The position numbers and the translations under genes are program-made. A stretch of 62,900 bases of DNA, the filler included, from Bonamia ostreae (taxonomy: Eukaryota), in NCBI GenBank assembly GCA_040357525.1. It is 49 parts of 49 records of this genome, joined end to end, with 100 filler letters (N's around TTAATTAATTAA, not from the genome) between each part and the next. Parts side by side here need not be neighbours in the genome. Positions count along the whole stretch, not along the records: positions 1,295 to 2,488 come from JBDODL010002394.1; positions 2,589 to 3,782 come from JBDODL010002395.1; positions 3,883 to 5,076 come from JBDODL010002396.1; positions 5,177 to 6,369 come from JBDODL010002397.1; positions 6,470 to 7,662 come from JBDODL010002398.1; positions 7,763 to 8,955 come from JBDODL010002399.1; positions 9,056 to 10,248 come from JBDODL010002400.1; positions 10,349 to 11,540 come from JBDODL010002401.1; 41 more parts are not named here. One strand, 5' to 3'. Shown one piece after another: positions 1,295-56,414 of this stretch; position 1 is the stretch's first letter, and every line of letters starts with the position of its first letter. The notes under the pieces were generated by a model that ran no database searches, had not been told where the DNA came from, and worked only from the letters and a program-made list of their open reading frames with translations.

Positions 1295-2488
1295 GGTATC
1301 TTTGTCTCCTGACAATTCGTATTCGTTGTCACAAATCACCTTTATCGTCTTCCCTTGTCTGTGCCCCGATTCGCCAACGACGTTTGAATTTGGTATTGTG
1401 ACAGTACTGCACTTCTCTGAAAGTTAAAGTGGTTACCATGTACACAAAGCAATGTCGGTTTCCAAACAGCGACCAGATTTTCCTTGTCGAATTCACAGTG
1501 CACTGTTCTCGTCTCCTCTTCCAAAACAAATCCAATTTCACAGCCGATAGTGAGACTATCGTTTATTTCGACTCTATTCGGCGTTGTTGTGAATCCGTTT
1601 GAAATTTGGAAAACAGGACATTTTTCTATTTTTTGAAATTTTTTCGATTTCAGAAAAAACTTTTTTGGCAAATGATGCGTCGATTCCAGGTAGCTGCTTT
1701 TGATATTTGGTTGTATATGCACTTTATTGGTGCGTCGACGGATGGTTCATAAATATCGTCACATTTAACGTGCACCGATTCCCCTATTCGCACGTTTTGG
1801 AGATCCGTGCTATCTGAATTCGGAACGAACAACGGTGCACATTTTTCTTATTTACAAAAATTGAAACCAAAAAATAGCTAAATTTTTTAAACGATTGAGT
1901 CGTCGATTTTCCAATTTAATTTAAAAAAAATTTAATTTCAATAAAAATTACAAAAATTTTCGCGCAAAAATTTTATTAGAAACGTGACGACTCATAAAAA
2001 GTGTAACAATTATAATAAAACAAAAATTTAGTAAAAAAATTTCGCACAAAAATAAAAAGTTACAATTTCAAGTATAAAAAGGTTTTAACAAAATTACAAA
2101 AAATAAAAACTTTTTACACAAAGAGGCGACTGACTCCATTTAGCACTGTTCGTTTCGACGTCATATAAACAATTTAAAGTTTTCGGTCCATCTCCAAATT
2201 CAAATTGTTCGTCACATCTCACATTTATCTTATTCTCGATCTCAATTCCCGTTGTTCCAATAACGTTCGAGTTCGGTATTGTGATGGATTCACAAGTCAC
2301 TTTTCATTTTAAGTCAAAACTTTTTTGGCAATAAAAAGATTTTGTCCATTTCGGTCGTTGCTGATTTTGGTCGTATTCACATTTGATGTTTGCGTCGCCA
2401 ATCGCGACGTAGTACAAATTGCATTCCGGGTTGATAACAGTGCCAATTGGCCATTCGAGAATGTCGTCAATGTTACTGTTTGTTATCT
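1295..2488 (-). CDS. Tandem Sushi/CCP-like module protein, partial at both ends, >=5 modules (protist-type contig)
   Basis: Exons 2488-2321, 2299-2111, 1846-1661, 1625-1437, 1416-1295 joined by GT-AG phase-1 introns of 21, 264, 35 and 20 nt. Each complete exon gives ~62 aa with C..I.NS..C...Y/F...C...W....C, e.g. TCESITIPNSN...VRCDEQFEFGDGPKTLNCLYDVETNSAKWSQSPLC. Confidence 0.8.
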
Positions 2489-2927
2489 NNNNNNNNNNNN
2501 NNNNNNNNNNNNNNNNNNNNNNNNNNNNNNNNTTAATTAATTAANNNNNNNNNNNNNNNNNNNNNNNNNNNNNNNNNNNNNNNNNNNNAACATTTTTAAC
2601 TCCTGTATCACTATCATTCCAATTCTTTTCAGATTAGATCTGATGGATCTTTGAATCAAGGGTGACATGAATTGTACAATTCAGGATTCTTGCAAACCTT
2701 TGGTCTTAAGGGCGGCGTAAAACGGTTAGCTTAGATATTGAGAGTGCTACTTTTAACTAATAAGATGACAGATAAGGTCAGTGGATCTATTGTTTTAATT
2801 TTGGATATTGTATTTATAATTTATTTTCTATCATTTCTATTTCCCAATCTAATTCAAATTAGCGGGTATGAGTCCGTTAATTAGATTGTATTCACGACTC
2901 CGAGTGTAATACACTTTCTTACAAATG

Positions 2928-3690
2928 TACCTCTAAAAGGGTCATAAGCCGATGAAAGTCTTCGTTTTTTATATGACGCCTTCAAGTCTCTTTAATGGGG
3001 TATCTGCATTTCTCATGACTTCTTGAGCTGACTGGACCCTTTCATCTGTCAATCCGTCTGCTGTGAAATGTATTTATGAATAAGAAAACGTGTATACTAA
3101 TACTATAATGGTAATATGTACATACTATATATACAAAGAGTCAAAGTTCTAGTATTAGTATTGAACATGAACAATCAATGTTATACATTTCAACTTACCT
3201 CCGAAAAATACAGGTTCAATAATTGCGCCATCTTTGCAAGGAACTATTCTCTTGACAAGTCTTTCATAAACTTGAAATGTCCTGAGTTTTGTTTTCATTA
3301 CAATCCGTTAATCCTAGTGGAAACTTTTAGAAAAAATAAAGATAAATATTCATTTTAATTGCAAATTACAGGGAGTAAGGGAAAATGCTGATGTCCCCAG
3401 ATAGCAACTGTGTAAAAATATGAAAGGCCTATCATTATCCATTCAAATGGTATGGGCAATGTTTGTCATAGACAAACAGATAGGACAATCAACTATATGC
3501 TCCCGAATCTTTAAAGAAATCAATGGCTTATGTATGCTTTCTACATTGATACATGTTAAACTTGTGTCCCAAAGATTCTTTATACCAAATTTGAAAAATG
3601 GGAATGGTAGTTATCAAGAAATTAGTAAAATTCAATTGTTCAGGCATGACAGATGATTGACGATGCATTGATGACGGATGCTGAAATAAA
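2928..3690 (-). pseudogene. Degenerate multi-exon DUF6589-like (transposase-associated) sequence, animal-type contig
   Basis: Pieces read FPLGLTDCNENKTQDI...VPCKDGAIIEPVFFG and DGLTDERVQSAQEVMRNADTPLKRLEGVI...EDFH, resembling the GDQLT.ER...AQ..R.N..TP..RLEG...EDWH pattern; internal stops and frameshifts present. Confidence 0.5.
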
Positions 3691-3882
3691 ATCACAAGTA
3701 GACAGCAGTTGGCATACCAACCCAAAGGGGTGAATATAAAGAAATAAAACAATTACTTGAGTTGTTTTCACCACTGCGTATTNNNNNNNNNNNNNNNNNN
3801 NNNNNNNNNNNNNNNNNNNNNNNNNNTTAATTAATTAANNNNNNNNNNNNNNNNNNNNNNNNNNNNNNNNNNNNNNNNNNNN

Positions 3883-4437
3883 ACCAAAATTCGAAAAAAT
3901 GTAAAAAAGAAATGTTCCAAAAACTCCCACGAACAATTCGCGAAACTGCGCGACGGCGACCAAGTCGATTGGGCAAACTCCCAATCCGGCGGACACGTCT
4001 TAACGACTGGCAACATCTACAAAAAAGGCATTTTCCGATTCCGAAAGAGACCGATGAACACATTTATCTCTCCGATCACCGCTGTCGGCGACTGCTACGC
4101 TTTCCAGCCGTCGAATGGCTACGTCGTCCTCGGAATGCGTTCCCCAATATTCCCAACTACTTTTGTCTACGAGTCGGTCAACGCGGACGCGAACCCGTCG
4201 AGCGGTTCGATGCCGAAGACGGTAAAAGTCTCCGCTGTTGACGAGAATGAGCGTTTGGTCGATTTGTCGCCGGACGGAAATGCGTTTGCTTTGAAGGAAA
4301 GTGAGATTAGACAAAGTTTCGAGTTGAAAAGAATGGAGAAAGCGGTGAAGCGGATTCGAGTCGACTTTGTGGAGAATAACGGGAATAAAGATTTTACGTG
4401 TGTCTACAGAATCCGTGTTTTCGGGGAGAGAAAATGA
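3883..4437 (+). CDS. SUN (Sad1/UNC-84) domain protein, C-terminal part (protist-type contig)
   Basis: Open frame from the contig edge: VDWANSQSGGHV, GDCYAF, SSGSMPKTVKV, and the terminal SUN signature RIRVDFVENNGNKDFTCVYRIRVFG; stop at 4437. Confidence 0.9.
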   Translation, partial: TKIRKNVKKKCSKNSHEQFAKLRDGDQVDWANSQSGGHVLTTGNIYKKGIFRFRKRPMNTFISPITAVGDCYAFQPSNGYVVLGMRSPIFPTTFVYESVNADANPSSGSMPKTVKVSAVDENERLVDLSPDGNAFALKESEIRQSFELKRMEKAVKRIRVDFVENNGNKDFTCVYRIRVFGERK

Positions 4438-4439
4438 AT

Positions 4440-5076
4440 GTTGTTTTGCGCCATTTTTTGTTGTTGTTTTAAAATACGGTTTTGTCGCTGCGACATTTTT
4501 TGTTGTCGTTTTTAAAAACGGTTTTGTCGCTACGCCATTTTTTGTTTTTTGGGATATTTTGTTGTCGTTTTTAAAAATGATTTTGTTATTGAGCCATTTT
4601 TTGTTTTTTGCGATTTTTTGTTGTCGTTTTTAAAACGGTTTTGTCGCTACGCCATTTTTTGTTTTTTGTGATTTTTTGTTGTCGTTATTAAAAATGATTT
4701 TATCGCTGCGCCATTTATTGTTTTTGTTTTTTTGTGATTTTTTTGTTGTCGTTTTAAAAAACGGTTTTATCGCTGTGCCATTTATTGTTTTTGTTTTTTT
4801 TGCGATTTTTTTGTTGTCGTTTTTAAAAACGGTTTTGTCGCTGCGCCATTTTTTGGTTTTAATTTTTAAAAACGGTTTTGTCGCTGCGCCATTTTTTGGT
4901 TTTAATTTTTTTGTTGTTGTTTTTAAAAACGGTTTTGTCGCTGCGCCATTTTTTGGTTTATGAGATATTTTGTTGTCGTTTTTAAAAACTGTTTTGTCGC
5001 TGCGACATTTTTGTTTTTTGTGATTTTTTGTTGTCGTTTTAAAAAACGGTTTTGTCGTTACGCCATTTTTGTTTTT
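4440..5076. repeat. Imperfect minisatellite, ~50-65 bp unit, about 11 copies
   Basis: Recurrent ttttgttgtcgtttttaaaaacggttttgtcgctgcgccatttt starting just after the SUN stop codon and running to the contig end. Confidence 0.95.
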
Positions 5077-7817
5077 NNNNNNNNNNNNNNNNNNNNNNNN
5101 NNNNNNNNNNNNNNNNNNNNTTAATTAATTAANNNNNNNNNNNNNNNNNNNNNNNNNNNNNNNNNNNNNNNNNNNNTTTAAGGCAACAGCTGTATCACAG
5201 GGATCTGCTGTCTGGGAAGCTACCATGAAATATCAGATAATAATGGATGGAGTTTCCGGGGGAATCCTACATACCTTTTCAAATAATGAGATGTCAAATC
5301 GATGCTCCAATATTTGGTAAAATGAACTAGGTTAACTTACCTACATGTTGAACAATACAAAAAAATATTATCAATAATTTTCCCATTGTGGATATATTGA
5401 TATATACAAGCAAAACACGTAGTCTTTATCACTTCAGATATTCGATGTTGCTAAACGTAAATATAGGGATGTATACAAAACATAGGGAGCCCAAACCCTT
5501 TATAATTCATTTATATACTACCTATTCGGGTCACGTGGCTAGAAAATTTACAAAAATCCCCTCAAAAGTTTCCATGTGGCTGATTGTGATATTTAAAGTG
5601 TCCAAATTTTAGTATCTGGTGTTTTATTTTTAGTTGAATAGACTGGATACAATACAACGATAGACATTGTCTCTTTAACATTGGTAATGTATGAACATGC
5701 ATTTCATTTCAAATGATTTGCAATTTGTTTATTATGTTTTTTAACACTGCCACTTAGATCCACTATTGCTGATACATGCATGTCCAACCGTTTGCTGTCT
5801 TTAAGCCAATGGATTTCTAAAGTGATTTGACTTCCTTGTCTATAGACGGTATTGATGAATAACTCAATGTAGTTGTTTTTAAAGATAATATATCTATAAA
5901 AAAATTAATTAACATTGTACAAGTAAACGTTGTCCGTCTTAGTATATGCATGTATGAACTCGCCAACTGCATATTCTATTGCACACCAAATTCTGAAGCA
6001 ATGGGACGTATCAACATGTTACATACCTTATTTGATCTGATCTTCAGCTGGGGATTTATACTTCCAGGGAAATGTGTTTGAAATAATATCTAAAAGTTCT
6101 TGAAAAAATGTCTAACATTTATTTTAATATAAAGGACTTTGTTTTGGATGTTTAGAAAAGGACATTTGAGTAGTCAGTGCAAGAAGAAACTGAAATACCC
6201 TGTATGTTCACAACTACGCCTTACTATAATGTAAAATGAAAATCAAGTGGTCGGTAAAGAACACAAACCTTCAACATTTGCTACACAAAATAGAGTCTCA
6301 TCAACGTCTTTACAAGTTAAGGGTTACTGATTCGTTACATCGCATTAACCCTTGATATCAGTCACCATTNNNNNNNNNNNNNNNNNNNNNNNNNNNNNNN
6401 NNNNNNNNNNNNNTTAATTAATTAANNNNNNNNNNNNNNNNNNNNNNNNNNNNNNNNNNNNNNNNNNNNTAGCTGCCCAAAAATGCGATATAAAGAAAAT
6501 TTTGGCCCAGCAAAAATTTTAAAAAGTAGCTCTTTCGAATAGTTCATTTTAACAAATTTAAAAGCTCAATTAAACAAGAATGGCTAAATTTGGCCGAACA
6601 AAAAAAATTTTTTTCCGATCAAAATAACCAAAAAGAAATAAGAGAATCGATTTTCTTTAAAAGTATCGAAATAAATTATGATTTTCTGTACAAAGACGGA
6701 AAAGACATTTTTGTTTTGACAAAAAATCGATTTTGTTCAATTTCCGAACATTTTAAAGCTGAAAAAGATAATTGGAAATTTAGTTTTGCGAAGGGCATTT
6801 TTGCAGCGTGGCTGTCTGTGTGTTGTGGTTTGTTCGGTGTTGATTTTATGAAAAAATTTATTTGGTTTCATGACGATTCGAGTGAATAATCAAAATTTTG
6901 TAAAAACAAAATTTCCATTTTTTTTTTATCAAAATTCGCAATTTCAGAACTTAAAAATAAAAAATTTTACTTGATGTAAAATAATTTTTGCTTCTATTTT
7001 TTGTGATTCAAAAGTTAAATCATTTTTGCCAATACGACCAAAAAATTTCAGTTTTTACATTTTAACAATTTNNNNNNNNNNATTTCAAAATCGCTTTTAC
7101 AAACAAAATTTCTTTTTTTGCTGTTTAACAATCTCAAAAATTGGTTTAACTAAACAAAATATTAAAATCGAAAAAATTGTTTTTTGGTCGAAAAAATTGT
7201 TTTCAATTTTTTAATAGAAACAACAAAATATTTTTTGCAGATTTACCATCAAAATGGTTAATTTTTGCAGTTTATTTAAATGGAATGGTTGATTTTAACA
7301 GTTTATCCAGATAAACTTTTAGCACTGACAAAATTTCAGCAATTAATTTTTTTAAAAATTGGTAAATTATTAAAATGGGAAAAGACAAATCCATTTATCA
7401 ATATTTAGTTCCCTCGAAACTGTTATAAAAGACGATTCTTTTTCTGATAGAGCAGATTTTGACTAATATTTCCAAAAATATTAAAAGATTTGTTGCTGTT
7501 AACAAAACGATCAGGCTCAGAATTAAAATTTCTTCCATTTTAAAAACTATCAAATTTGTTTTCCAATAATTTTTAAAACTATCAAAATTTTCGTTTGTTC
7601 AATATCAAAAATAGATTTTTCGTTTTTGTAACATTTCATTATTTTTGCAATTGTTTTAATTGNNNNNNNNNNNNNNNNNNNNNNNNNNNNNNNNNNNNNN
7701 NNNNNNTTAATTAATTAANNNNNNNNNNNNNNNNNNNNNNNNNNNNNNNNNNNNNNNNNNNNTCATTTGACAATGACAGAAAAATACACACACACTTCAT
7801 ATTTAAAATAAGAACAT

Positions 7818-8333
7818 ATGGAAAAATACCAGATAGACGCTATTAGAAGCGAAAAGCGTAAATTAATGCATCGACTTATCAAACAGTCGAAGAATGCAGC
7901 AGACGCAGAAGACATATATCAAAACGCAATGTTGAAAATATGTCGATTTGCCGGAAAGAAAGAATTTGCAAGTAAAGATCACTTCCGGGCCTGGATGTTT
8001 CACATTGTGGTAAATGAAGCTATTAACTTCTTCAAGTACAAACAACGTAAATGGGGAAGTATTGACACTAATGTAGATGTCGATATCGAATGTGGTAAAC
8101 GGCTCTCAATTGAGAGTATCGATGAAGAAACATTGCTGCAAATACTGACAGAAACATCCGATACACTTCCGCCAGGTAGAAAGGAGGTGTTTTATATGAC
8201 ATACATTCAAAATTTGAGTGAGGAGGAAATCGCTAATCGAATGTGCATAGCACAGTCCACCGTTAGGACCAGGAACTGGGAATCACGAAAGAAATTTAAG
8301 GAGAACATAAAAAAAGTATCATGGTTAGGATGA
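7818..8333 (+). CDS. Sigma-70 family, ECF-type RNA polymerase sigma factor (bacterial or phage contig)
   Basis: 171-aa intronless ORF; region 2 DAEDIYQNAMLKI...FRAWMFHIVVNEAINFFK; region 4 HTH LPPGRKEVFYMTYIQNLSEEEIANRMCIAQSTVRTR. Confidence 0.9.
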   Translation: MEKYQIDAIRSEKRKLMHRLIKQSKNAADAEDIYQNAMLKICRFAGKKEFASKDHFRAWMFHIVVNEAINFFKYKQRKWGSIDTNVDVDIECGKRLSIESIDEETLLQILTETSDTLPPGRKEVFYMTYIQNLSEEEIANRMCIAQSTVRTRNWESRKKFKENIKKVSWLG

Positions 8334-11640: not shown

Positions 11641-12640
11641 CGATTTTGTACTTTTGCCATTAGAAAACATGCAAAACAAATTGCGACAATTTAGCGCAGT
11701 CGCTTCAATCGACCACATTTCGTTAAAAAATGAAATTTTGTGCCCCTCTTTACACGACAGCAACTTCAGCAGTTTTTAAATCCCAAATTCAAATTTTTTA
11801 AATCAATTTTGTAAATTTTACAAAAAGAGAAAAATTGGAAAAATGTTAGTAAAAGACTCCGCAAAAAATTTAAAAGAGAGTTAAATCTTTCACAAGTTTA
11901 AAAATTTTTGTCACAAATTTCAAAAGTACAAATCCATTAAAACTGCAATGCAAACGAACGGAATATCAATTTTACAAGGACCGCCTGGAACTGGTTAAAT
12001 TTTGCTAAAATTTAGGAAAAACGAAAACTGTGATTTCACTAATAAATTTATTGCACATCGCCGCTTATTCAAAGTTGTTACAATAAAATTTTACCTCTTA
12101 TTCGTCCAAATTTTTGCTAAATTTTAAATTGCTAAAATTTAGATATTACGAATCTTTATTGAATTGGATCAAATCGGAACATTCCGACAACAACAAAAAA
12201 GTAAAACAAAATTTTGGCGGAATAACTAGTCTTCAAAACATCAATTTAAACACGTTCAAACAATTTTTCCAAAATTTGAAAAATTGAAAAAAGCTAAATT
12301 TTGCTATTTTTTAGTATAATAACTGCGGCATGTTCTAAAACAGTACGCGAAAGCGACATTAGAAGAAAGAAGCCGCGTATTCTAGTTTGCGCACCTTCAA
12401 ATTCAGCTGTAGACGAAATCGTATCAAGACTCGCTGTTCAACAAATGTTCGACTTTGAAGAAAAACTTTATACGCCCAGAATGATCAGGTTGAAAATATT
12501 AAAAAGCAAAATTTTATATTTTAGAAATTTGATTTTAAGTTTTAAAAATTTTTTAAATTAATAGAATTGGAAATTCTGCCAAAATTAGAGAAAACGTTCA
12601 TTTTCACCTTTCTTTAAAACAGAATGTCGACGCTTTTTTC
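11641..12640 (+). CDS. Senataxin/Sen1-like SF1 (Upf1-family) helicase, internal fragment (protist-type contig)
   Basis: Removing introns 11896-11926 (31 nt) and 11994-12015 (22 nt) gives LNLSQYKSIKTAMQTNGISILQGPPGTGKTKT (Walker A); motif Ia RILVCAPSNSAVDEIVSRL; MIR|IG across intron 12489-12564. Confidence 0.9.
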
Positions 12641-12654
12641 GCGTATGAACACAG

Positions 12655-15689: not shown

Positions 15690-16704
15690 TCATCCAAACA
15701 TTATTAATTCAAAATATATATTTTTATCCAATAACATTATCTCAAAATAACAATATCTCAAAATATTTATAAATTTCAGATTATCTTCACTAAATTTTAT
15801 TAAAAAACATTCTGTCTCTTTCTTCCCTCCCAAATCGCTTGACTTCTCTTTTATATTTTCCAATTTTGCCATTTCCTTAAATTTAAAGTTTTCTATTGAA
15901 TGCTTAATCGACTCTTGTGTCAACGCCGGAAACGTTTCCATCCAACTTTTCACTCGATCCAACAAATATGCCGGACATGGATGAGCTTCATTCGCGTGAA
16001 ACAACAGATTAAGCTCATCTTTTCTTTAAAAATAATCGATTTTAAAACGCCACTCCGATCTGTCGAGCGAGATGTTGCGAGCTTATCGCGGCTTTTTTCA
16101 GAGCAAATTTTACTTCGAGAACAGTCTCGAAATGAGGATTGCCGACATTTCCATTCACATTTATTTCGTTCGCCAATTTTTCAACCGATTTCTCAAAATC
16201 GTTCAAATTTTTCGATCTATTTTCTTTCGAAAATTTTCGTTTTGTTGGACCCGTTTCGACCGACTTTTTCGAAAAAATCGAATCGGAATTTTTTGGATCC
16301 GATAATTCGACTTCGATTGCTGTTTCAGAACTATCGAACGAAATTGAAGGAGGCGAAGGACTTTCTGACTGCGATTTTTCAACAACTTTTGGGACGAACA
16401 AAAATCCTCTTTTGATTTTTCCTTCCGATTTTGCTTCGATTTTAAGAACGTTTTCGCTGTAGCCAGTGACAATAATGTCGCAAGTTTCACTTTATTATTT
16501 TTTAAATTTGAATACCTTTGTTGAAGATCAAACGATGTATGCGAATGTATTCTCGGCCGACCTCGGCGCATGTTCGATTCTTCGTCGAAAGGGAGATGCT
16601 CGGGATAATATCTTTAATGAATTTTTGGAAACAGTTTTTCGTATGGCAAGAGAACTTTTTTGTAGATGGATTTGAGCAAGGAAGAGGCGTTTGTGGAAGT
16701 TTCG
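15690..16704 (-). CDS. ARID-domain plus AT-hook protein, 3' part (protist-type contig)
   Basis: Contig edge reads ETSTNASSLLKSIYKKVLLPYE (ARID C-terminal helix); 21-nt intron 16612-16632; then NMRRGRPR (AT-hook); further short introns link to the 16042-16401 and 15690-16004 ORFs. The 3' end is uncertain. Confidence 0.7.
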
Positions 16705-19700: not shown

Positions 19701-21567
19701 TGCATTAATGGCCGATTCACATTATTGTTTGATCAAATAATACAAAATCCATTTCCTAAAGTCTATTATAAGGTAATTGGATACCCAAAATTTTGGATGC
19801 ATTTAATGAAGTTGGACTTTGCTGTGTTGTTGAGTTTACAAGTAGTATTGGTGAATAATGCAAAAATAAAGGCGAATTCGTGCGAGCATTTTGTGGTAAA
19901 TATGGTTTTTTTTAGCCATATTAGATATTGACAATACTTTTACAAAATTCTATAGCAAATCATTTTGGTAGATTCTATATGTCCTTGAATGTAGGAGTTC
20001 AAAAACAGGATATATTTACCGTAATTGACACATGAATTTATCACGGAAAACACATTTGTACATTAATCTACAATTTAACATTCGATTCAGTTTTGTCATT
20101 AATATAAACATTATCAATAAATAGGAATTCAAAATATTGATTACAAATCTCGAAACTGGCACATGCTATTGTGTATAACGCTATGTTGCTTCGTAACTTA
20201 CCATACTGAAAAATTCCTGGCTTGTTTTCCTGTTTGACATTTTTCATGACGTTTTCAAAAATAGTATCTTCTTCATGTTCAATGGCATTTTTATTAATTA
20301 CACATCTTGCTTTTGTGGGTTCATTTCTTATATCTCCCTCTAGATCTGTTTCACACATAAATCTGAATGACCATTAAAGAGAGCTTTCTCTTTACGAAAA
20401 GTGTTCTTTGCATTTTTTTTTCACAATCATCGTCAGCCATCTTTGTATGTGACGTATGTCCATTTCAAATCAAATCAGTCGAACGTGATTTGATATTATC
20501 CTCAAGAAAATTTACGTCAATCTTGACGTCATTGATTTCTGTGTAAACATTGCCTCCTTCTAGAATCATACNNNNNNNNNNNNNNNNNNNNNNNNNNNNN
20601 NNNNNNNNNNNNNNNTTAATTAATTAANNNNNNNNNNNNNNNNNNNNNNNNNNNNNNNNNNNNNNNNNNNNTGATGCGGATAAAATTTAGCAGCAAATTA
20701 AACTGGAAAGGAATTTTGGCTTTAGTTCCACTAATTTTTAATGACATTATAAAATTAATGTTTTGATATATTCTATAAATTCAGTATCTGCAAACAGAAG
20801 GGTACTCATGAATTGATGGCAGTTAACACCTATGGATTTTAGTAGATTGAATGTGCATGTAGGATCGACACGTGGTGAAGTAGGCCTAATGATCTCAGAA
20901 CAAGACTGAAGAAAATGTGACAAAAGGTGAGGCTTCACGTTGTCTTCTCAAACCGTAACATCTCATACTTCAAAATTATTACAATTGCATTATGTTTATC
21001 CTGCATTAATTCATTAAGTCAAATATGATATATCCTACCTAAAGTTTTGTTTGTTAAATTTCGTTTCCGCTTCTGATATCTGGCGCATGGCCAAGAATGA
21101 ATAGTTGGTCTGACGGGGAGCATATATGCACCTTGTTCCTTTCATATACGTTACATGTAAAAATGTATTGAAGCGATAACGTATGATCTCAGTAGTTTAT
21201 TTCTCATGTTTCAATGCAATTACTCGAGTCCTAGAATAGCACTTTTATTGGTTCATTTGGTATGGATGGTTTATTGAGACGGTACAAACAATAGATGCCG
21301 GAAAATAGGGAACACTTAGCTATATTATACAATTCTTTAATTGTTTATCATCCAGGGAATTGAGATATTATCCGATCAGTGTTTTTGTAGATAAGAAAGA
21401 TGATTCGAATTCAATGTTCTATCATACAACTGGTTAAACATCTACGAGTAATTTAAATCACAACCATATATTCACGGACTTGTGCCACGGTAACAGTTAA
21501 ACACGTGAACCTCCTTTAGCAGAATATATAGAATTTCTTCTTCTTTTCCTCCAATAGAACAACAAGC

Positions 21568-21860
21568 ATGTCCAATCAGCAAGGAACACTAGAAAACATT
21601 TTTGAACAGATCAATAATGGTACCAGTGATTCCTTCTCGTCTTTCCAGTTCGAATGGATTAGAATTGCGTCCTTTCACAATTTCCCAGACGGTGCATTAG
21701 TCAGCACACTTCGGCTAGCAAGATGTGGATATTACTATACCGGACAAGGCAGGGAGTGTCGCTGCTATTTCTGTGGTTCTACACACTCTGACTGGAGCTG
21801 CGAAATAAGTCACGAGCCTGATTGTGCTCAGAGAATGGACTATAGAAATGCACCAGTCCC
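21568..21860 (+). CDS. BIR-domain inhibitor-of-apoptosis protein, 5' part (animal-type contig)
   Basis: EWIRIASFHNFP...LRLARCGYYYTGQGRECRCYFCG...W...H..C; preceded by a polypyrimidine tract and AG acceptor. Confidence 0.85.
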
Positions 21861-24360: not shown

Positions 24361-24648
24361 TTCTCTAGTGGTATGATAGTAACGTGTATGGTCACTTTCT
24401 AAATCGAGGCAGCCAACTAACAAACAAGTTGTTGTNNNNNNNNNNNNNNNNNNNNNNNNNNNNNNNNNNNNNNNNNNNNTTAATTAATTAANNNNNNNNN
24501 NNNNNNNNNNNNNNNNNNNNNNNNNNNNNNNNNNNTTTTTTTTTACTTGTTTTTTATGTCATTTTTTTAATTTAATCGATTAAAAAGTACATTTAAAATT
24601 CTGCAAAATTGTTTTAGAAAAAACGTTTTTATTAACGTTTCCAAAAAC

Positions 24649-25701
24649 TTTTTCGTCCATTATCGCTGCCAAAGGGGTCCCAACGAGCAGTTTCCCCGCT
24701 TCCACCTTGCAGCCCAATATGATCGGGTTATGTTTCATGAGCACAAATTCGGGAATGATCGACATAATGACCGGGAAAACCGGCTTCCCTTCCTTCTTCG
24801 TCTTTTGCTTCAAATCTGCAATGTAATCAAGAAAAAAGTCCTTCAAATTGTAAATGATCTCCCCTTTGAAAATTTTCACTCCGACTTCTTCCGCGAACTG
24901 CTCGATTTCCCGGTCAACTCTCACGTTGAACGCCAAAATGCAGGCGTACTCCGGTTTCTTCTCCAACATCACGCTCGCCGCCAAGACGTCTTTTTTGCGC
25001 ACCGGGCCCACGGCGATATTGCAAACTGGTATTTTCTCACTTTTGAGGTACTCCAGAAAAGCTTCCAGCGCTCCCAACGTGGAAGATTGCAAGCTGACGC
25101 CCTTCCCAGCCGCGTCAACTTTGCCGAGGATGCCGCTCACGTCGGCGATCGCTTTTTGTTTCAAGCTCTCGATGTCGTCGTTTTCGCCGCAGACGCGAAG
25201 CCGCGACCCCGCGACGGCGTTTTCGAGCCCTTGCGCGCATATTTTTACGCCCGCGGCGGCGAAGGCTTCGCCGATGGACTTGAACTCGCCTTTGAAGCGG
25301 ATTTCCTTCAAAGGAGCGGGTTCGTAGAGCGCTCGGATCGTGGTGTCGATCGGGCCGCAGAGTCCGCTGAGGACGATTCGGTCGTTGAGTTTGAGACTTC
25401 CGTCTGAAAGAATGACGTCGATCGTGTGGCCGAGGCCCTCGTCTTGGCGGACCTCCAAAACAGAGCATTCGACTTTCCCGCTCAGCTGGAGCCGAGAAGC
25501 CATTCTGGTCTGCGTGAGTTTGACGAGTAAGCTCAGCAAATCGGGGATGCCTTCGCCGGTCATGGCGGAGGTCGGTACAATGGACAAAACTTTGCGGGTG
25601 GCTTTGTTTTCGCTGTACAGACAGCAATTAATCCCTTCGGCGCTTATTTGCGCGATGGTCGTATTCAACCGACTTTTGAATTCGTTTTGTTGTTTTTTGC
25701 C
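24649..25701 (-). CDS. EIF5B: Eukaryotic translation initiation factor 5B, large internal exon (protist-type contig)
   Basis: IVPTSAMTGEGIPDLL, CSVLEVRQDEGLGHTIDVILSDG, VSLQSSTLGALEAFLEYL, ILAFNVRV, GVKIFKGEIIYNL, HNPIILGCKVEAG; AG acceptor at 25702, GTT donor at 24648. Confidence 0.97.
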
Positions 25702-27109
25702 CTTTTAGCGGTTGCGATTTATNNNNNNNNNNNNNNNNNNNNNNNNNNNNNNNNNNNNNNNNNNNNTTAATTAATTAANNNNNNNNNNNNNNNNNNNNNN
25801 NNNNNNNNNNNNNNNNNNNNNNAAAAAAAAAAGCAATGTGCAATGTGCTCTAAAATATCTCTTATTCTTATATCTACAGGTGAAATGAAAGACATAATTT
25901 ATTTACATCTATGAATAACTTCTGCATTTATCCGGAAGTAGATCTTATTTTAGCTCAGTGGTCAGTGAACAATTTAACATGATCAACGACGGATTTTTTA
26001 TTGCTTCTACATTGGTTCGAAGACATCCCCACCATCCCACATTTCTCAGTTAGTTACAGTTCGTAGTTTTGTCTATTTTATATTTTTCCTTTCCTTGCCA
26101 CAACCATGCAGTAGCTATATGTATCAAAATATGCTTACTTTAAATCAAATCTGGTGATATATTAAATTTTGTATCTGAAATGCCACGAAAAATACTTCTT
26201 AATCACGGAGTATTTAGAAACCAACTCTTGGATCCGCACCGCACTTGATATTTTGAACTAAGAACCCCCCCCCCCCCCTCTCCTTACTTAGTTACTAATT
26301 GAATATAAACACATTTCGGGCCTAAGAAGGTCATGGACAGGGAATAGAAAGGTATACACACGTGCTCACATACGCACACGCACATTCACATATTTTGCAT
26401 TAAATGCGCATGCGCAATTCCTCGCGGAAGTACAGCACATCAACAGATCTATGTTTAAAGTATACGTTTTAGTATAAATACTAAAATAGGGTCTATATCA
26501 TTGAAATGTACAGATTTTGATAATTTGTTTCATTGAAATTGCTGAAAGAGTCATCATTTGGCTAACTACAACTTCACCAGGCTCTGAAGGTAGGGCTTTA
26601 ATACTGAGCAGAACATGGCTTTTTTTATTTTAGGTTTTGGGATTCCCTTTTTCAAATTTTTGTCGGGAATTTATAGTTAATTTCGNNNNNNNNNNAGTTC
26701 AGCAGCTGTCCATTCGCAAAGCTATAAGTAAGTCTAAGTAAAATTTGTTTAAAATGGAAATGTGTACATTTGCAACTGGCAGGGGTCCACAGAATATTAG
26801 AATTCGCAGAAACACCAGAAAAAATTACCAAAAACACCACAGAAAGTATCCAAAACACCACAGAAAGTATCCAAAACACCGATGTATCCTTAAAATGCAC
26901 CTACAGGATGTTTGATCATATACATGTAATACCAAAGTTTCATTTTGATCATGTTGATGTCTAAGAATTGAAATGATTTATGGAATTTAAAATTTTGATG
27001 ACTAGTATTNNNNNNNNNNNNNNNNNNNNNNNNNNNNNNNNNNNNNNNNNNNNTTAATTAATTAANNNNNNNNNNNNNNNNNNNNNNNNNNNNNNNNNNN
27101 NNNNNNNNN

Positions 27110-39961: not shown

Positions 39962-40836
39962 AAGATACAAAGACATTCACATCAATCAACCAAGTTTCGA
40001 AGAAGAGATGTGCGTAGTCGAAAACGTCACACCTCACGGTTACAATTTTAAAATCCGGCAGAATGCAGACTAAGAGACACGACATATTCGAGTTCGATCG
40101 TCGTCGACGTGGAATATGTCCGGAACACGACGATTGTCCACAAAAACAATATTGTTGTATAAAGACATAAACAGAAAATCGGCAACATTCCGATGATGCT
40201 CAAAAGCGACAAATGCATTTTAGCGGACAAGACGGAAGAGGAACTATCTTATTTGGAGGAATGCCCCCACGATCCAGGCGGCTATTTTATAGTCAACGGC
40301 ACCGAACGCGTCATTTTGATACAAGAGCAAGTCTTCAAAAACCGCATTTTGGTCGAAAGGAACAAAGACAAAAACATTTCTGCGTCAGTGACAAGTTCCA
40401 CGGAAGCCAGCAAAAGTCGAACGGAAGTTTATTTGAAGAACGAAAGAATGTTTGTCAGGGCAAACAAGTTCACCGAGGACATTCCGGCCGTTGTTCTCTT
40501 AAAAGTTTATAGATTTTTTTTGCATTTTGTAAATTCGGTTAAACGCTAAAATTGAAATTCGGTTTTTTTTTATAAAGGCGATGGGCTTGGAGAGTGACCA
40601 AGAAGTGGTTCATATAGTGGGTTTGGATTATTTAGCAGTGCTATCGCAATCGATTGAACAATGTCGGTCGCTTGGAATAGACACGGCGGAACAAGCACTG
40701 CAATATATCGGGAATAGGATTCGCTATACGAAAGCGTCGAAGAGCAACAGGACTAAAACGGAAGAAGCGAGATTTATTTTGATAAGTGTTGTTTTGTCGC
40801 ACATTCCATCGGAAAATTTTGATTTTTATGAAAAAG
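39962..40836 (+). CDS. POLR3B: RNA polymerase III second-largest subunit (RPC2), 5' region fragment (protist-type contig)
   Basis: TPH|ECRLRDTTYS across 23-nt intron 40039-40061; ECPHDPGGYFIVNGTERVILIQEQ..KNRILVE; ASVTSST..KSRT; EDIP...LK|AMGLESDQEVV, which are RPC2-type rather than RPB2-type. Confidence 0.93.
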
Positions 40837-43849: not shown

Positions 43850-44625
43850 AAAGCTCAAAATAAAGCCACAAATTGGATAAAACTTTTGGCAATCTCGTTC
43901 CCGTGAACTTTACGTTTTCGCTGTTAATTTTGTCGACGACATTTTTAACCGCCAAATTTGAAATTTTCTTCGTTTTCTCTTTATCCAAAACCAATTTTTT
44001 GATCACGTGATCAAAATTTTCAATCGCTCTCATTTCGATCTTATTCGGATTCTTTTTATTGGAAACGAGTTTGTGATATGCAAACTTGCAATGTTATTAT
44101 ATCTTCTTTCCTAAATTTAGTGCCATCCAAAACGTCTTCCCAAAATTTCGGCTTTATGTTAAGCTTTTAAATTTATGATGTTTTTGTAATTGCGACATAA
44201 AGCAAAACTTTTTCCACGGCTTCATGCGAGAAAACATTGCCGCTTGTTTTAATTGCGACGATATAACTATTGTCGTTGAAAACCCGAAAAGTTAATGGAC
44301 AATGCAACTTTCCTTTTTCGTTTTTACTGAAATTCAGTTTGATCAAATCCTTCTTTTTTAAGGATTTCCCGGTCACCGGACATTTCCCGAACTTGTCGAT
44401 ATATTCTCTAATATTCGTTTTGTCAAAGACATTGCCGTCTGTTGTGCAAACAGGGCTTTTGAATGGCAACAAAGAAATGGAGCAACAGTCGAACGATAAT
44501 GGCAGAACACGCGGAACGCGTTTTTCTTTGAAACCGCCAAAATCGCGACGCCATTCTGTCGAAGTTATGTGCCTTTTTTTAACGTGTTAAAACATTCTGT
44601 CTTGTTGATGCTGGTTTTTCCCCAT
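43850..44625 (-). CDS. PPIL2: PPIL2/CYP60 U-box cyclophilin-like splicing factor, 5' part (protist-type contig)
   Basis: MGKNQHQQDRM|HITSTEW (21-nt intron 44573-44593), LSFDCCSISLLPFKSPVCTTDG, CPVTGKSL...DLIKLNF, HCPLTFRVF, IVAIKTSGNVFS.EAVE, EDIITLQ. Confidence 0.92.
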
Positions 44626-48940: not shown

Positions 48941-50035
48941 GCTTTTGTGTTGATGACAGTGACATTGGGCAAGCCCAGTTCCTTCACCCTTTTAGCTGAA
49001 AATTAGTGCGGAAACCAAGCACATGGCACCTCGAGAAATTGCTGTCGACCGCAACGACAAAGCCATTTTGATCAAAAACGTTCGAAATTTTCTTCATTTT
49101 TTCGACTATTTGGCATGTTTTGGAGCCAGGAGCAGCGCACATGTCAAGTACTTTGTGACTGGGTTCGATGTCCAACGTGATCGGAGGGATCATAGAAACC
49201 TCTTCTTGTCTCACAATGTTGCCGAAGTCGCTTTCTTCAGTTAGCCATTTGTGCATTCGACTGTTTTCCTGTTTGTTATTTTAATGTTAACATCGATTTT
49301 CTTCATTTCTCGTTTCGATATGTTTGTCTTGAATCCAGGCAGAAACGTTTCGAGGCTGTACCATTTTAACGGTTGAAACTAATGTGAAAGTTGTAATTTT
49401 GTTTTTAATGTGAAAATGACAAGTTTTGTTTTTAATGTGAAAATGACTAGTTTTGTTTTTAAATGTGAAAATGACAAGTTTTGATTTTAAAGTGAAAATG
49501 ACCAGTTTTGTTTTTAAAGTGAAAATGACCAGTTTTGTTTTTAAAGTGAAAATGACAAGTTTTGTTTTTAATGTGAAAATGACAAGTTTTGTTTTTAATG
49601 TGAAAATGACCAGTTTTGTTTTTAAATGTGAAAATATCAAAATGGCTTATTTGCTTTTTGATTCACTTTATATTAACTAGACGCAAAAATCAGCCATTTT
49701 ACAAAAATCGGAAGATTAAGAATTTTATGTCGAACAAAAGTCCAAAAGCTCACCTTGTCCCGAATGTTCTGATTGAGTGCCGAAAAACTCTCTATCAGTT
49801 TATTGTTTCCATTAGATTTGCCTGAAAACCAAAAACAAACTGGAAGTTCAGTCTTTAAGCACTTTTTGAGGGCCGCCGCGTCTTCTTCGCTGTACAGAAC
49901 ACCTTGTTTCCTATAATAACGAATGAAGCTATCCAGTTTTTTGTAATATTTCGCATTAAATTCCTCTTCACGAATTAATTTTTTCATTCCTAGTTTCCTT
50001 TTGTCCGCGGAAGATTTGTCTAACAAGTGCGCCAT
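48941..50035 (-). CDS. NSUN2: tRNA (cytosine-5)-methyltransferase NSUN2/Trm4, 5' part (protist-type contig)
   Basis: FIRYYRKQG, LKTELPVCFW, GNIVRQEEVSMIPPITLDIEPSHKVLDMCAAPGSKT, GFVVAVD...RCHVL; introns 49269-49291 (23 nt), 48996-49015 (20 nt) and ~49379-49753. Confidence 0.93.
49385..49635. repeat. 27-bp minisatellite, about 9 copies, inside the long NSUN2 intron
   Basis: Repeated gtgaaaatgac(a/c)agttttgttttta(a). Confidence 0.95.
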
Positions 50036-51369: not shown

Positions 51370-54059
51370 CTAAAATGTTTTAAGATGTACAAACATTATG
51401 ANNNNNNNNNNNNNNNNNNNNNNNNNNNNNNNNNNNNNNNNNNNNTTAATTAATTAANNNNNNNNNNNNNNNNNNNNNNNNNNNNNNNNNNNNNNNNNNN
51501 NTTGATGATGTATCAATATAAGTAAAACATCCTCGACTAGACGTAAAACAAACAAACAAACAATCATGACACATTTAAAAATGGTATGTGACTTGTGTTT
51601 TCATGGAAACAAGACATAAATTTTCTTGTTAAAACATAGGCCTCAATGAATGTTGACTTTTCATATTTCAAGTGCACATTTATTTTTTTCATTGATTTTG
51701 AAATTTAAAATTTGCGAAAATGTGTGCTTTTTACCGTAATCCAGATCACCCCCTACTCTTCACTGCGATGCGTATTTCAAGTACTTTGTATATCTATGAT
51801 TCATACAAGTTATTTCCCATTTTGCTAAGTGAAAGTAGGAATTTGTGAAACGCAGAGAATGGTTTTTGGATATTCTGAGCTGATTTACATATTTAAATCA
51901 ACTGAAGTTTTCAGGTAACATTGTAAGTGACTGTCGGAGATCCTTAGGCTCTCGATGAAAAGCCTTACAAGAAAGTGGATTTACGCATTTTTACTCTGCT
52001 GTCGTGATCACGTAGTTTATGTAAATACTTCTGACTGAGATCAACCGAAAATAGAAAACAAAACAGCAAAAGTGTCTAATTTCCCCATGTTTCACTAGGT
52101 GTTCGTGAATAATGTATACCACATTAGCTTTTGTACAATGAAAAGACTTCATAAATCTTTCCAAATTGTATTGCCGCTTCCCGAGAGGGTGAAATACTGA
52201 AAACAATGACAAAACATAAGAAAAGATTCATAATGAAAATATTGACGAAATTACATTACTTTAAGCAACCAAAGTCAAAATCAACCTAATACACCAATCT
52301 ACATTTTACAATGTATCAAATTTTGAAAATAGATGACAATGAAAGTTTTATGCAGTACTCAAACTTTGTGAATTTTTAGGACAGAGTCTAATATAGTATG
52401 ACCTATACTAATTCAATATCAATACATACCGACAAAATCCATCAATAAGATTATCAAAAGATGCAGTAAAATAACAATTGTCCAATCCATGTTTTAAATT
52501 GGCCTAAACTTACACATGCAGAAAATTCAATTCAAAGTGGTGCACGAAAACAATAGTATATGTCATCAGCAATATGCAAGTATAATGCACAATATATTAG
52601 CGTACTGTTTGGCTTGTCAAAGATCACTTCATTTACCTACACCTGTATTCACGATATAGGGCTCTCAGCGGGTGTGAGCGGNNNNNNNNNNNNNNNNNNN
52701 NNNNNNNNNNNNNNNNNNNNNNNNNTTAATTAATTAANNNNNNNNNNNNNNNNNNNNNNNNNNNNNNNNNNNNNNNNNNNNGTCACCCACATTATTAGAA
52801 TTAAAATGTGAGCATATTCTAAGATGTCCAGGTATTCAATTCGAACATAAAATACTGACTGATAACATATCACCCGATGAATGTTGGAAATGCCTGTATA
52901 ATTCAGCATCACTTTCAAACATGATGAAGAGCGCGTGTGCATATCCTATACAAAGTTTGGTCAATTACATCACTTATTATTTGTTAGTTTATATCAATGA
53001 TCCTCATGATAGATTAAGTTATTTTTTCTAATCGAATTTTTGTGGTAGAAGTGTAAGAGCTATAAACTACATCTATACGTATTCTAAAAATAGTGTGAAG
53101 GAATGAAATCTGACTTGTGTATATATTAATTCATTCTTAATGTAATGGGGGATGCATAATACAGAACAGGATGGGAACATCTAATAGACGGGCTAGATAC
53201 ATTGAAAACGTAATAAATCTGAGAAACAATAAATACGAAGGTGCTATGGTATATATGTGATTTTAGCATGTTCTTCAATAATATGTTCACTGTGTCGGTG
53301 ATTAATATCCAACTGATATTTTTCGTAATAACGAACCTCCATGTACTCATATTCAGACGACTCTTCTGCTTCATATTGGGGTTTGGGATTTTCCTTTAAA
53401 AGAACAACATATCATGATAAGTAATTGGTATCTGAAACCATCAATTATGAAATTAAGGGTAACATCCAAGTTCGGGCGTTCGCTTTGCAACTGAAAGACC
53501 CAGGATCGATTCCCATTCAGGCAGATAGCGTAGGCAGTTACTACCTCTTTACCAGACACCCACCGTTACAAGTGACCATCACGGATCTTTCGATAAATGT
53601 TTTCACAAACATCAAACAAATATCTGACGTTTTCTTGGATATGTTATTGAACGTAAATGTTAACGGCAAATAAGCAATTTTATGTCAAGATAGATAACTT
53701 CTCCATGGTCAGTTCCTTATATTTATGAATTCTCTAACCCAAATTATTGGTACGTATACTACGGGCACAATACCTGTGTCAAAGGCTTTTTACACTAACC
53801 TTGTAAATATTTGTAATACTCATCATTTATATTTTGGATTAAATATTTAGTCATATATTGAAATGCATTTTACATCATCTAGATAACGATATATTTCGTC
53901 ATTACAACCTACCGTTCGGTCAAATGCTACCTCTGACGTGTTTCAACCCGATTGTTAGGNNNNNNNNNNNNNNNNNNNNNNNNNNNNNNNNNNNNNNNNN
54001 NNNTTAATTAATTAANNNNNNNNNNNNNNNNNNNNNNNNNNNNNNNNNNNNNNNNNNNN

Positions 54060-54222
54060 ACTTACGTCTAAGCTTGACGCTTACGGCCTTTGAGCAAGCA
54101 GGGGAAATTATCGTGCCGCACCTTATGTCACACGTGTCACACGGTTTTTGCATTTTCATCCGAAGTATCGCCTCGACACGTAAGGGGTACTAGGGAACTA
54201 TTCTAATCCAGATCTCCACGAG
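54060..54222 (-). mobile_element. SINE-like dispersed repeat body
   Basis: Reverse complement reads gattagaatag...gtaccccttacgtgtcgaggcga...cggatgaaaatgcaaaaaccgtgtgac...ggcacgataa...gctcaaaggccgtaagcg; shares blocks with 48789-48840 and 61757-61980. Confidence 0.7.
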
Positions 54223-55337
54223 AAGGGATATGGTGGATCTGAAATAGAGATCCACACTGTACATTAGAATACACATGTTTCTTGATAGAAATATACCACA
54301 AAGTAAAACTAAGCACCAAATCAACAAAATACATACAGGAATCATTATGAAAAAGTGAAGAGAGCGAAAAGCGATTGATCTCATAAATCCCATAAAGAGT
54401 ACAGAATCAAGAAGTGGCCAAACACGGTCACAACAAACACGCACTCCTGGACACACCCGATATGGGATCATATGCATAGGAGGAGTAAGCAGGTAGATCA
54501 CATTTGACCTAAAGAAAGGTTCTATTTGCAAAAAAGATCTAACGACAATAGGATTTGCGAAATATCCCCTCAACACCACCATTTTCATCAGTAGCTTTCC
54601 TCGATTCATCATACGCAGACCATGTTTTCAGGTATTAAATCAGCTAAGTAATGCAGATGGTAATGTATAGAAAGTTGAGTATGGAAAAGTGATGCCATTT
54701 GTTATACATTTGAGTTGTTAGTTCTCCATTAGCATCTATGTTCAGTAAGATATCTAAATATGGAACAAATTTGTAAGAATGTGTGGTGTCTTGTATTTTG
54801 AGTTCACTGGAAAATATTTGATCGACATATGAATAAATACTGTTAATATATAATCAACGTCGAATTTTCGAATTGAGAGCTACAGCAAGATATTCTTTTT
54901 GCTTCTCACGTAGATACTTTTGAATATATTCAGCTTAATAAGAATATAAGAACAGGTCAACTACTAAAAGACCATAATTTGTGCGCAATGAAATTCCAAC
55001 AGAGTATTGAAAAACCTGATCACCAAAGGTCATGTAGATATTGTCAATGAGGAAGTCCAGATTCTTTTCAATATCAACTCCAGATTAATTGTTAGTAGAA
55101 TCAGAGTGGTGTTTCACAAGATAAGTTTAGCACACCTGAGTCAGGTGACTTACTGCACTTGGTCAGTGTCTGTCGTCCGACGAACGTTTACAATAAAACT
55201 ACATGATGACTACCATTCGAATTCTTTTTAGATTTGGNNNNNNNNNNNNNNNNNNNNNNNNNNNNNNNNNNNNNNNNNNNNTTAATTAATTAANNNNNNN
55301 NNNNNNNNNNNNNNNNNNNNNNNNNNNNNNNNNNNNN

Positions 55338-55847
55338 AAAATCGAAAATTGATTTAATAATGTCAAAATTGTCTCTTTTTTTCTTTTTCTTTTTACGCTT
55401 TTTTATAGTTCTTTTGGAAATATCAACCGACTTTTCGTTGACGTAAAATTTTTTATCACAAAAAGTGCACCTTTTCATCTTTAAATATAAAACAAAAACT
55501 TTAACCGAAACAATATCGTCTTTATGCTTCTTTTTGGCCGACAAAATAAAGCTCTTGTCAAATTTTGTAAAATTGACAGGCGAATTAGTGTGTTTTAGAA
55601 CGTTTTTGTTCTTTTTCAAAACGTTAAAGAACAGACCGTCCCCACAACTAAAATTCTCGCCGCAATAGTAACAAAAATCGCAATCGATATCCAAATTTTT
55701 TGAGGAATCGTTGACTTCTCTTAAAAAGTCCCTCAAATCGCAATTTAAATATCGAACATAATCCTTTTCCGCATCGACTGATTTCATAAACCGGCCAATT
55801 CTCTGTTTGTGCTCCATCGCCAACTCCAAGTCTTTCAAACTCGCCAT
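55338..55847 (-). CDS. Small 2xCxxC zinc-ribbon protein with basic tail, possibly RNase P/MRP Rpr2/Rpp21/Snm1 family (protist-type contig)
   Basis: ATG 55847; FCYYCG ... RCTFCD; Lys-rich C-terminus; probable in-frame 21-nt intron 55479-55499. Confidence 0.5.
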
Positions 55848-56007
55848 TAAAAACACGAAAATAGCTTTTCGAATTTTTAGACAAACAGATTTTATTAACC
55901 AAAACACGTACAGTACAAAGCTAATTCCGCAGAAGCGAAAACACTAACCAAAATCCATATACAATTCAAAATTGAAAAATAAAATTTAACGAGGGTTAGA
56001 TTCAACA

Positions 56008-56414
56008 ATGTCCTCAAATCCGACGGTAAACTGCTCTATAATTTAAAGAAAGAAGATCTCAGCCTCCTTTTAAAAGCCGATTGCCACATCGGCGCCAAAA
56101 CGCTCACCAAAAAAATGGCTCCGTACATCTTCAAGAAAGCAACCGACGGGAAATCGCACATAATCGACTTGCACAAGACCTGGCAAAAAATTCACGCCGC
56201 GGCTCTGTTGCTCGTCGCCGTCAAAAACCCGAAAGACATCTGTTTGGTGTCCTCGACCAATTGGGGCAAAAGAAGCATTTTCAAGTTTAGCCAATACGCG
56301 AAAGCTCATTCCATTTCTGGTAGATTCACGCCGGGGACGTTCACAAATCAGATTTGCAAGAGTTTCCGTGAACCAAGCGTGCTCATTGTATGCGATCCTG
56401 AATTGGACAATCAC
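56008..56414 (+). CDS. RPSA: 40S ribosomal protein SA (uS2), 5' part (protist-type contig)
   Basis: MSSNPT|KEDLSLLLKADCHIG (23-nt intron 56026-56048), HIIDLHKTWQKI, SGRFTPGTFTNQ, FREPSVLIVCDP..DNH. Confidence 0.95.

Follow-up and report, generated by a model that had tools for sequence, protein, structure and literature searches.

Miniature introns and two U1 genes with different 5′ arms in a genome assembly of the oyster parasite Bonamia ostreae

Short introns by themselves are already known in many parasites. According to the accessible parts of the respective papers, all 224 introns of the mikrocytids Mikrocytos mackini and Paramikrocytos canceri measure 16 or 17 nucleotides (nt), with 17–19 spliceosomal proteins and U2, U4 and U6 only, no U1 being found (PMC10245619); Stentor combines introns of 15–16 nt with a standard U1 arm, a lariat of 10–11 nt and a tail of 5 nt (PMC9505925); chlorarachniophyte nucleomorph introns span 18–21 nt (as cited in PMC10245619); and myxobolid and dicyemid parasites have median introns of 22–27 nt and weak splice signals (PMC13644364). 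As to donor sites, Entamoeba uses GUUUGU with a co-evolved U1 (ACAAAC) and one U1 per species, standard and modified U1 candidates are mentioned for Physarum polycephalum with the data deferred, and most lineages with odd donors retain a standard U1 (bioRxiv 10.1101/2022.06.08.495308, in the part available). For Bonamia ostreae, the accessible part of a comparative genomics study of Ascetosporea calls the introns canonical and gives no lengths, and the word ‘intron’ is absent from its four text supplements as available (PMC11069148); neither ‘intron’ nor ‘splic’ occurs in the main text of the transcriptome paper (PMC9329632). A literature search, with subscription journals mostly outside its coverage, returned no report of Bonamia intron lengths, donors or U1. 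Here we analyse nine segments that an initial annotation had read as miniature spliceosomal introns in a stretch of 62,900 nt (the window) of the B. ostreae assembly GCA_040357525.1, together with the intron lengths, splice signals and U1 genes of this genome. As miniature introns, those of B. ostreae add one more case to a known phenomenon; the pair of U1 genes sets this case apart.

Read in coding direction, all nine segments run from GT to AG, and the frame is open once they are taken out; the coordinates and lengths proposed initially hold throughout (20, 21, 22, 21, 23, 21, 20, 23 and 23 nt in coordinate order). Four donors are GTTT, three GTTA and two GTAA. Retention of any of the three 21-nt introns (2300, 16612 and 44573) would leave a stop in frame. 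Working blind, a gene model whose training contigs lay elsewhere found seven of the nine, with posteriors of 0.6–1.0, and missed both introns of NSUN2. In a profile test against relatives, the introns at 44573, 48996 and 49269 were the best among 4, 9 and 6 alternative GT-AG pairs, respectively. Public annotation already knows both short NSUN2 introns, since protein P0173 has both removed. A junction was seen in sequence data for one of the nine: a 158-nt contig from run X7 matches 56003–56183 without mismatch and lacks exactly 56026–56048, at depth 3 and in one of four runs, although the kind of run X7 was guessed as DNA and the missing segment could reflect a processed copy. Runs X4, X5 and X9 have no coverage of this junction, and a look-up of data sets containing the RPSA stretch returned none of RNA. 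This intron, the only one seen spliced, has a GTAA donor.

A plain count of GT-to-AG distances gave a weak bump (1.12–1.18 at 19–20 nt), and a coding-aware exon–intron model was therefore built. It was trained on the first ≤10 kb of the 80 longest of the 7503 contigs (729 kb), required GT and AG only and carried a flat length prior of 8–300 nt. Expected introns numbered 7, 7 and 6 at 16, 17 and 18 nt, rose to 60 at 19 and 87 at 20 nt, and then fell to 35, 42, 36 and 22 at 21, 22, 23 and 24 nt; counts were 4–11 per length up to 18 nt and returned to background by ~30 nt under the flat prior. Between 19 and 24 nt, 283 GT-AG introns were expected versus 39–101 for eight decoy pairs, none of which had such a step, and neither GC-AG nor AT-AC pairs peaked at any length in the same model. 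At least one intron of 19–24 nt was present in 67 of the 80 loci. A second pass, with learned site weights and the prior still flat, yielded 513 confident calls with a median of ~25 nt: 10 below 19 nt, 143 at 19–20, 98 at 21–24, 88 at 25–40, 100 at 41–100 and 74 above 100 nt.

The lower length edge is hence as sharp as claimed initially, counts setting in at 19 nt and peaking at 20, although the proposed floor of ~20 nt lies one nucleotide too high, and the length distribution that the initial annotation had called for also brought out a tail reaching hundreds of nucleotides. The share of long introns is uncertain: 262 of the 513 calls exceed 24 nt, though the decoys show many false long calls, GA-AG giving 182 confident calls with 139 above 24 nt. 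Long introns are real nonetheless, since a sushi-repeat gene holds introns of 21, 264, 35 and 20 nt at the equivalent place in four repeats (284 stop-free codons when spliced) and NSUN2 holds introns of 375, 23 and 20 nt. The initial list was correct in its nine entries but contained only the short introns of genes that also hold introns of 35–375 nt. Its further proposal, that introns are recognised by their length, does not agree with equivalent positions of one gene holding 20–264 nt or with about half of the confident calls exceeding 24 nt. In a length-locked class nearly all introns would fall within 2–4 nt, and here 241 of 513 calls lie at 19–24 nt. Intron length has a lower bound rather than a set value; a floor of 18–19 nt with a long tail is very probable, and the true floor may be 18.

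In the run that used GT and AG alone, an A stood at −7 or −8 in 41 of 42 19-mers and 57 of 60 20-mers (98/102 together), compared with 15/42 and 24/60 (39/102) at −11/−12, and the same was seen in eight of the nine claimed introns. In 19–20-nt introns its commonest distance to the 5′ end is 13 or 14 nt, and the signal fades as introns lengthen. By its position, this A would be the branch-point adenosine, placed near the 3′ end. Among 381 donor calls, 327 were GTT and 41 GTA; the commonest four-base donors were GTTT (235), GTTA (39), GTTC (32), GTAA (31) and GTTG (21). GTTTT was the top five-base donor (123/381), while the top six-base donor reached only 60/381. The strongest donor signal is T at +3 (327/381 versus a background of ~0.4 inside introns), followed after GTT by T at +4 (235/327; intron background 0.55, p = 9e-11) and after GTA by A at +4 (31/41; background 0.57, p = 0.01). 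The GURAGU consensus does not describe these donors, +3 being mostly T and +5 being G in 38 of the 368 GTT and GTA donors together. Introns with GTA and GTT donors have the same median length (25 and 25 nt). All these are most likely ordinary U2-type introns with GT-AG ends. A U12-type identity, with RTATCC donors or AT-AC ends read by U11, does not fit: GTAT occurs in 6 of 381 donors, AT-AC shows no length peak and the variant RNA described below scores as U1 and has U1-type loops; U11 and U12 were not searched for.

The genome holds two U1 genes. The variant (genome G000, contig C1288:766-923, minus strand) scores 47.4 bits against the Rfam U1 model (E 1.5e-9), under the cut-off of 69.5, and its arm reads AAAAC where the consensus is CUUAC, which makes it complementary to GUUUU. 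No part of its length is missing: the U1-70K loop, a U1A-like loop, an Sm-like site and the final stem are all there, and it folds into a cloverleaf (z −2.3). The second gene, on contig C414 (from ~3712 to the contig end), has an ordinary ACUUAC arm and was located via a promoter element that both share. The two are 68% alike over the aligned part. Both loci have the composition of the parasite, by which a host origin of the small nuclear RNA (snRNA) genes was ruled out. The variant arm pairs better with 201 of 235 GTTT donors and the ordinary arm better with all 31 GTAA donors, a split that follows from how the two classes are defined. Judged from its sequence, the AAAAC U1 is probably functional; that both U1 genes are functional is a tentative proposition, for which we see somewhat less than even chances. 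Scanning metagenomes for an AAAAC arm yielded six loci, one of them a U1 and none recognisable as a relative. This U1, on an unrelated metagenome contig (L121:1-126, minus strand), is near consensus (96 bits), with the arm AAAACCUG and no clear promoter; it represents either a variant or a 5′-damaged copy.

The shared promoter element of 13 nt occurs nine times in the genome and not at all in the control. It sits 59–60 nt before both U1 genes, U3 and U4, with TATATA 29–31 nt from the element start, presumably recalling the plant layout of upstream sequence element plus TATA. Searching with it led to U3, U5 and the second U1. Four of the nine copies have no known RNA behind them; one of these (L105:1311-1323, minus strand) is a complete promoter with TATA, on the same contig as the start of SF3B3. 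U4 reaches 94.4 bits in Rfam and has its upstream element in common with the variant U1; U5 reaches 68.2 bits. If the usual promoter distance holds, U5 (L104:225-366, minus strand) is longer at its 5′ end by 31 nt, which include a hairpin of 6 base pairs before the Rfam match. The best U2 candidate is weak, at 21 bits (L095:368-514, minus strand), and may be a pseudogene because the shared promoter, sought upstream of it, was not found there. It has a perfect branch-pairing stretch with two extra U just ahead, an enlarged first loop and GCC for the consensus GCU. U6 was not found in the genome by Rfam and two motif searches: three weak Rfam matches scored 16–18 bits, two of them like coding paralogs, and the motif matches had no U6-like context.

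On the protein side, U1C, PRP6, SF3B3 and PPIL2 are present, as is a G-patch plus GCFC protein that we take to resemble TFIP11. Of the inventory that the initial annotation had suggested, this gives two U1 genes, U4, U5 and these four named proteins on the one side, a weak U2 and no U6 on the other, with 150 of 1135 exon-like frames covered by the Pfam scan. Within this coverage, the parts found do not fit a strongly reduced spliceosome with no U1 identified, as in mikrocytids. PPIL2 had been presented as a surprising survivor; its retention is no paradox, as U1, U4, U5, U1C, PRP6 and SF3B3 are there too and Stentor, with shorter introns, keeps most spliceosomal proteins (PMC9505925, in the part available). 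As to a modified spliceosome, the visible change is the GUUU donor together with a second, matching U1 gene, neither named initially.

One could read the nine segments as assembly errors or frameshifts within decayed genes, given an assembly that is fragmented and mixed with host DNA and only one of nine junctions seen in sequence data. A length peak specific to GT-AG and lacking in decoys, a fixed branch A, a shared donor and exact register with relatives make this hardly credible, and the segments are almost certainly real miniature spliceosomal introns. The first reading of their size was a reduced spliceosome measuring ~20 nt, suggested by the narrow ranges in mikrocytids, Stentor and nucleomorphs. 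The sharp onset at 19 nt with its mode at 20 would fit, as would the enrichment of splicing genes among reported B. ostreae losses (9/328, false discovery rate 0.006; a supplement row of PMC11069148, available in part). This reading is already largely refuted by the 35–375-nt introns, which occur within the same genes. The spliceosomal parts listed above are all present, and mikrocytids differ in having 16–17-nt introns only and no U1 identified in the accessible account (PMC10245619). We regard a length-measuring spliceosome as very improbable.

The overall explanation that we favour, and consider rather likely, is that U2-type introns of B. ostreae have shrunk towards a geometric minimum, with the AAAAC U1 as main reader and the ordinary U1 for GUAA. 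The floor would be the sum of the smallest lariat loop (~13 nt, counting from the initial G up to the branch A) and the smallest tail (6–7 nt). U1 would bind the first four or five intron bases and U2 the branch A 7–8 nt from the end, together leaving room for at least ~19 nt; longer introns would be spliced in the same way, and introns would be defined across the intron rather than measured. With GUUUU donors, the AAAAC U1 is predicted to pair over all five bases, G+1 to U+5; the ordinary U1 may serve the GUAA minority. We may further speculate that one major spliceosome employs two working U1 small nuclear ribonucleoproteins that divide the introns by donor (GUUU ~85%, GUAA ~10%), the donor code being caught mid-change after a U1 duplication while introns were squeezed to the 19-nt floor; from the sequences at hand, this possibility falls somewhat short of an even chance.

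Several observations weigh against this explanation. The ordinary-arm U1, of which the contig end leaves 115 nt, carries an additional hairpin and a changed 70K loop, reaches only 23.5 bits (E 0.017) and gains nothing in folding over shuffled sequences, for which reasons it may be dead. Comparing the stems of the two U1 genes, 1 of 21 pairs is changed on both sides, seven on one side and three are broken, and the 5′ ends of both were placed from promoter spacing. For 92 GTT[ACG] donors the arms tie. The variant arm predicts U at −1, where T makes up 13% and G 34%, and G at +6, seen in 39 of 327; T at +5 is weak (155/327), and G at +5, the pairing partner of the ordinary arm, occurs in 0 of 41 GTA donors. 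To this add the weak U2 and the missing U6. The intron statistics are model-derived, and stop-free introns of 3n length are under-called, 21 and 24 nt nonetheless standing far above 18; two of the ten calls below 19 nt are plausible 18-mers (L060, L027). Part of this would suit an Entamoeba-like state in which the AAAAC U1 alone is at work, the gene with the ordinary arm is a relic in decay and GUAA introns are removed despite weak pairing to U1: the divergent 70K loop, insertion and poor fold, the lack of G at +5 in GTA donors and the equal lengths of both intron classes all point that way. Yet the ordinary-arm copy retains its full promoter, its spacing and an intact ACUUACCUG, its poor fold stems partly from the contig-end cut, the variant arm would pair with GUAA at +1 and +2 only, and A follows GTA above background. 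We consider this state unlikely, though distinctly more probable than one in which the GUUU donor arose by selection on the U6/U5 side and T-rich drift, with the AAAAC U1 incidental or a pseudogene. For the latter speak the yeasts, whose +4 U preference tracks loss of METTL16 and SNRNP27K with U1 unchanged (PMC10581693, in the part available), the exon position −1, which remains G-rich as the variant arm does not explain, and the AAAAC-arm U1 of the unrelated metagenome contig, which has no clear promoter. The yeast route concerns +4, however, whereas the strongest signal here is T at +3, and three adjacent arm changes all complement the donor while promoter and remaining RNA are kept, which leaves this alternative quite unlikely.

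Individual introns are collected in Table 1. The least secure of the nine are those at 11994 and 16612. The exon downstream of 11994 matches AAA_11 and SEN1; against this intron, the second model pass favoured a distal acceptor, and the flanking exons, each searched alone, had no match to a solved structure. Around 16612, the upstream side matches the end of ARID only (E 0.0033) and the downstream side no family. In RPC2, the exon upstream of 40039, searched alone, gave no match, and excising 40154–40174 gives exact register with human RPC2 residues 102–133. The gene at 44573 is PPIL2 as named initially, its named relatives matching at E 5e-33 and weaker. For RPSA the profile test at 56026 was undecided (spliced 57.0 versus unspliced 57.3), and the unspliced frame has no ATG upstream. 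By eye, two actin-family genes (L085, L090) also have ~20-nt introns beside ~34–200-nt ones.

Table 1. Introns in the window and loci of the shared snRNA promoter. Model values are posteriors of the exon–intron model; “new” marks introns missing from the initial annotation.
Feature	Position	Strand	Evidence and remarks
Intron, 20 nt, GTAA donor, sushi-repeat gene	1417..1436	-	Model 0.8; phase 1; repeat position matches the gene's other three introns
Intron, 35 nt, sushi-repeat gene	1626..1660	-	Model 0.98; new
Intron, 264 nt, sushi-repeat gene	1847..2110	-	Model 0.9; new
Intron, 21 nt, GTTT donor, sushi-repeat gene	2300..2320	-	Stop if retained; model 0.7, second pass 1.0
Intron, 22 nt, GTTA donor, SEN1-like helicase, between GPPGT and GKT	11994..12015	+	Model 0.6; least secure
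Candidate intron, 19 nt	15790..15808	-	Model only, 0.53
Intron, 21 nt, GTTT donor, directly past ARID domain end	16612..16632	-	Model 0.82
Intron, 23 nt, GTTA donor, RNA polymerase III subunit RPC2	40039..40061	+	Model 0.94
Intron, 21 nt, RPC2	40154..40174	+	Model 0.6; new
Intron, 21 nt, GTTT donor, after PPIL2 codon 10	44573..44593	-	Model 1.0; profile test best of 4
Intron, 20 nt, GTTT donor, NSUN2/NCL1	48996..49015	-	Profile test best of 9; removed in P0173
Intron, 23 nt, GTTA donor, NSUN2/NCL1	49269..49291	-	Profile test best of 6; removed in P0173
Intron, 375 nt, containing tandem repeat, NSUN2/NCL1	49379..49753	-	Splicing as in public protein P0173
Intron, 23 nt, GTAA donor, after codon 6 of ribosomal protein uS2/RPSA	56026..56048	+	Left out in X7 contig; model 1.0
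Second RPSA intron, start, >100 nt, GTTT donor, cut by contig end	56415..56515	+	X4/X9 contigs diverge from window after 56414
Shared snRNA promoter: both U1, U3, U4, probably U5	L094, L096/L101, L099, L102, L104		RNA start +59/60

The window joins 49 unrelated contigs of ~1.18 kb each, separated by N-TTAATTAATTAA-N spacers, from an assembly of 10.29 Mb in 7503 contigs. A trinucleotide model divides the pieces without overlap into 18 parasite-like ones, which carry all nine claimed introns, and 31 others. Several of the latter look animal, for example, those with a BIR domain at 21532–21858 and an SRCR domain at 60023–60244, so that host DNA is heavily mixed into the assembly at this contig size. 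A gene-dense contig encoding an ECF-type sigma-70 factor (7812–8330, plus strand) is bacterial or phage, neither host nor parasite. An intronless eIF5B-like frame of 374 amino acids (24583–25704, minus strand) lies on a contig of 49% GC, the usual parasite range of 25–40% being far below. Contigs of the parasite also encode two family-19 chitinases and a LicD-family protein (L069:2173-3411, L074:103-972, L017:4546-5385). As to species, the NSUN2 exon of the window is identical to public protein P0173, named Bonamia ostreae by its source, and among PPIL2 relatives one from the foraminiferan Nonionella stella (57%) ranks second, above vertebrates, as would suit a member of Rhizaria. Two negatives leave the species short of certain: none of eight actin loci is matched by the actin-1 primers published for B. 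ostreae (at least 5 mismatches), and a search for nuclear small-subunit (SSU) rRNA found a single, organelle-like match. Two B. exitiosa primers match one actin locus with 2 mismatches and the other two have 7–8; the incomplete assembly considered, these primer mismatches neither confirm nor exclude the species (primers from the accessible part of PMC10893247). A tandem of SSU rRNA, tRNA and large-subunit rRNA on L002, AT-rich and of organelle type, is probably mitochondrial.

It is an open question how a splice signal can evolve in step with the RNA that recognises it while thousands of introns continue to be spliced. An old and a new U1 and both donor types in one genome are the intermediate predicted by a route of duplication followed by divergence. 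The 19-nt floor with a free tail would provide another natural gauge of how small a lariat can be, ~13 nt versus 10–11 nt in Stentor, and Bonamia introns would represent a step between ordinary introns and the 16–17-nt introns of the related mikrocytids. On the practical side, gene finders that require at least 20 nt or carry a GTRAG prior will produce wrong annotations for B. ostreae, a notifiable oyster parasite.

Compared with the known systems, as far as their accessible descriptions go, B. ostreae shares with the mikrocytids the class Ascetosporea, parasitism of invertebrates and ultra-short introns; unlike theirs, its introns are numerous and extend from 19 nt up to hundreds, and it retains U1 and U5 (PMC10245619). 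With myxobolids and dicyemids it has parasitism and a short median in common, whereas these are animals, and the accessible text reports no altered U1 for them (PMC13644364). As in Stentor and nucleomorphs, the presumed branch A lies close to the 3′ end at a constant spacing, and Stentor likewise keeps most spliceosomal parts; there, however, the length range is narrow, while Bonamia has an estimated loop of ~13 nt, a tail of 6–7 nt and two U1 arms versus the one standard arm of Stentor (PMC9505925). Physarum polycephalum resembles it in having standard and modified U1 in one genome, yet differs by a single changed base (GUAUGU donor), and tiny introns are not mentioned in the accessible text (bioRxiv 10.1101/2022.06.08.495308). 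Closest in its donor is Entamoeba, with U at +3 and +4 and A at the matching places of the U1 arm, and in Bonamia, too, the AAAAC arm complements the commonest five-base donor, GTTTT. The Entamoeba donor is strict (88–90% GUUUGU) and keeps G at +5, whereas that of Bonamia is loose (GTTT 235/381), has lost G at +5 and forms no near-invariant six-base motif; and where Entamoeba has a single U1, Bonamia has an arm altered at three places with an ordinary-arm U1 gene alongside (bioRxiv 10.1101/2022.06.08.495308).

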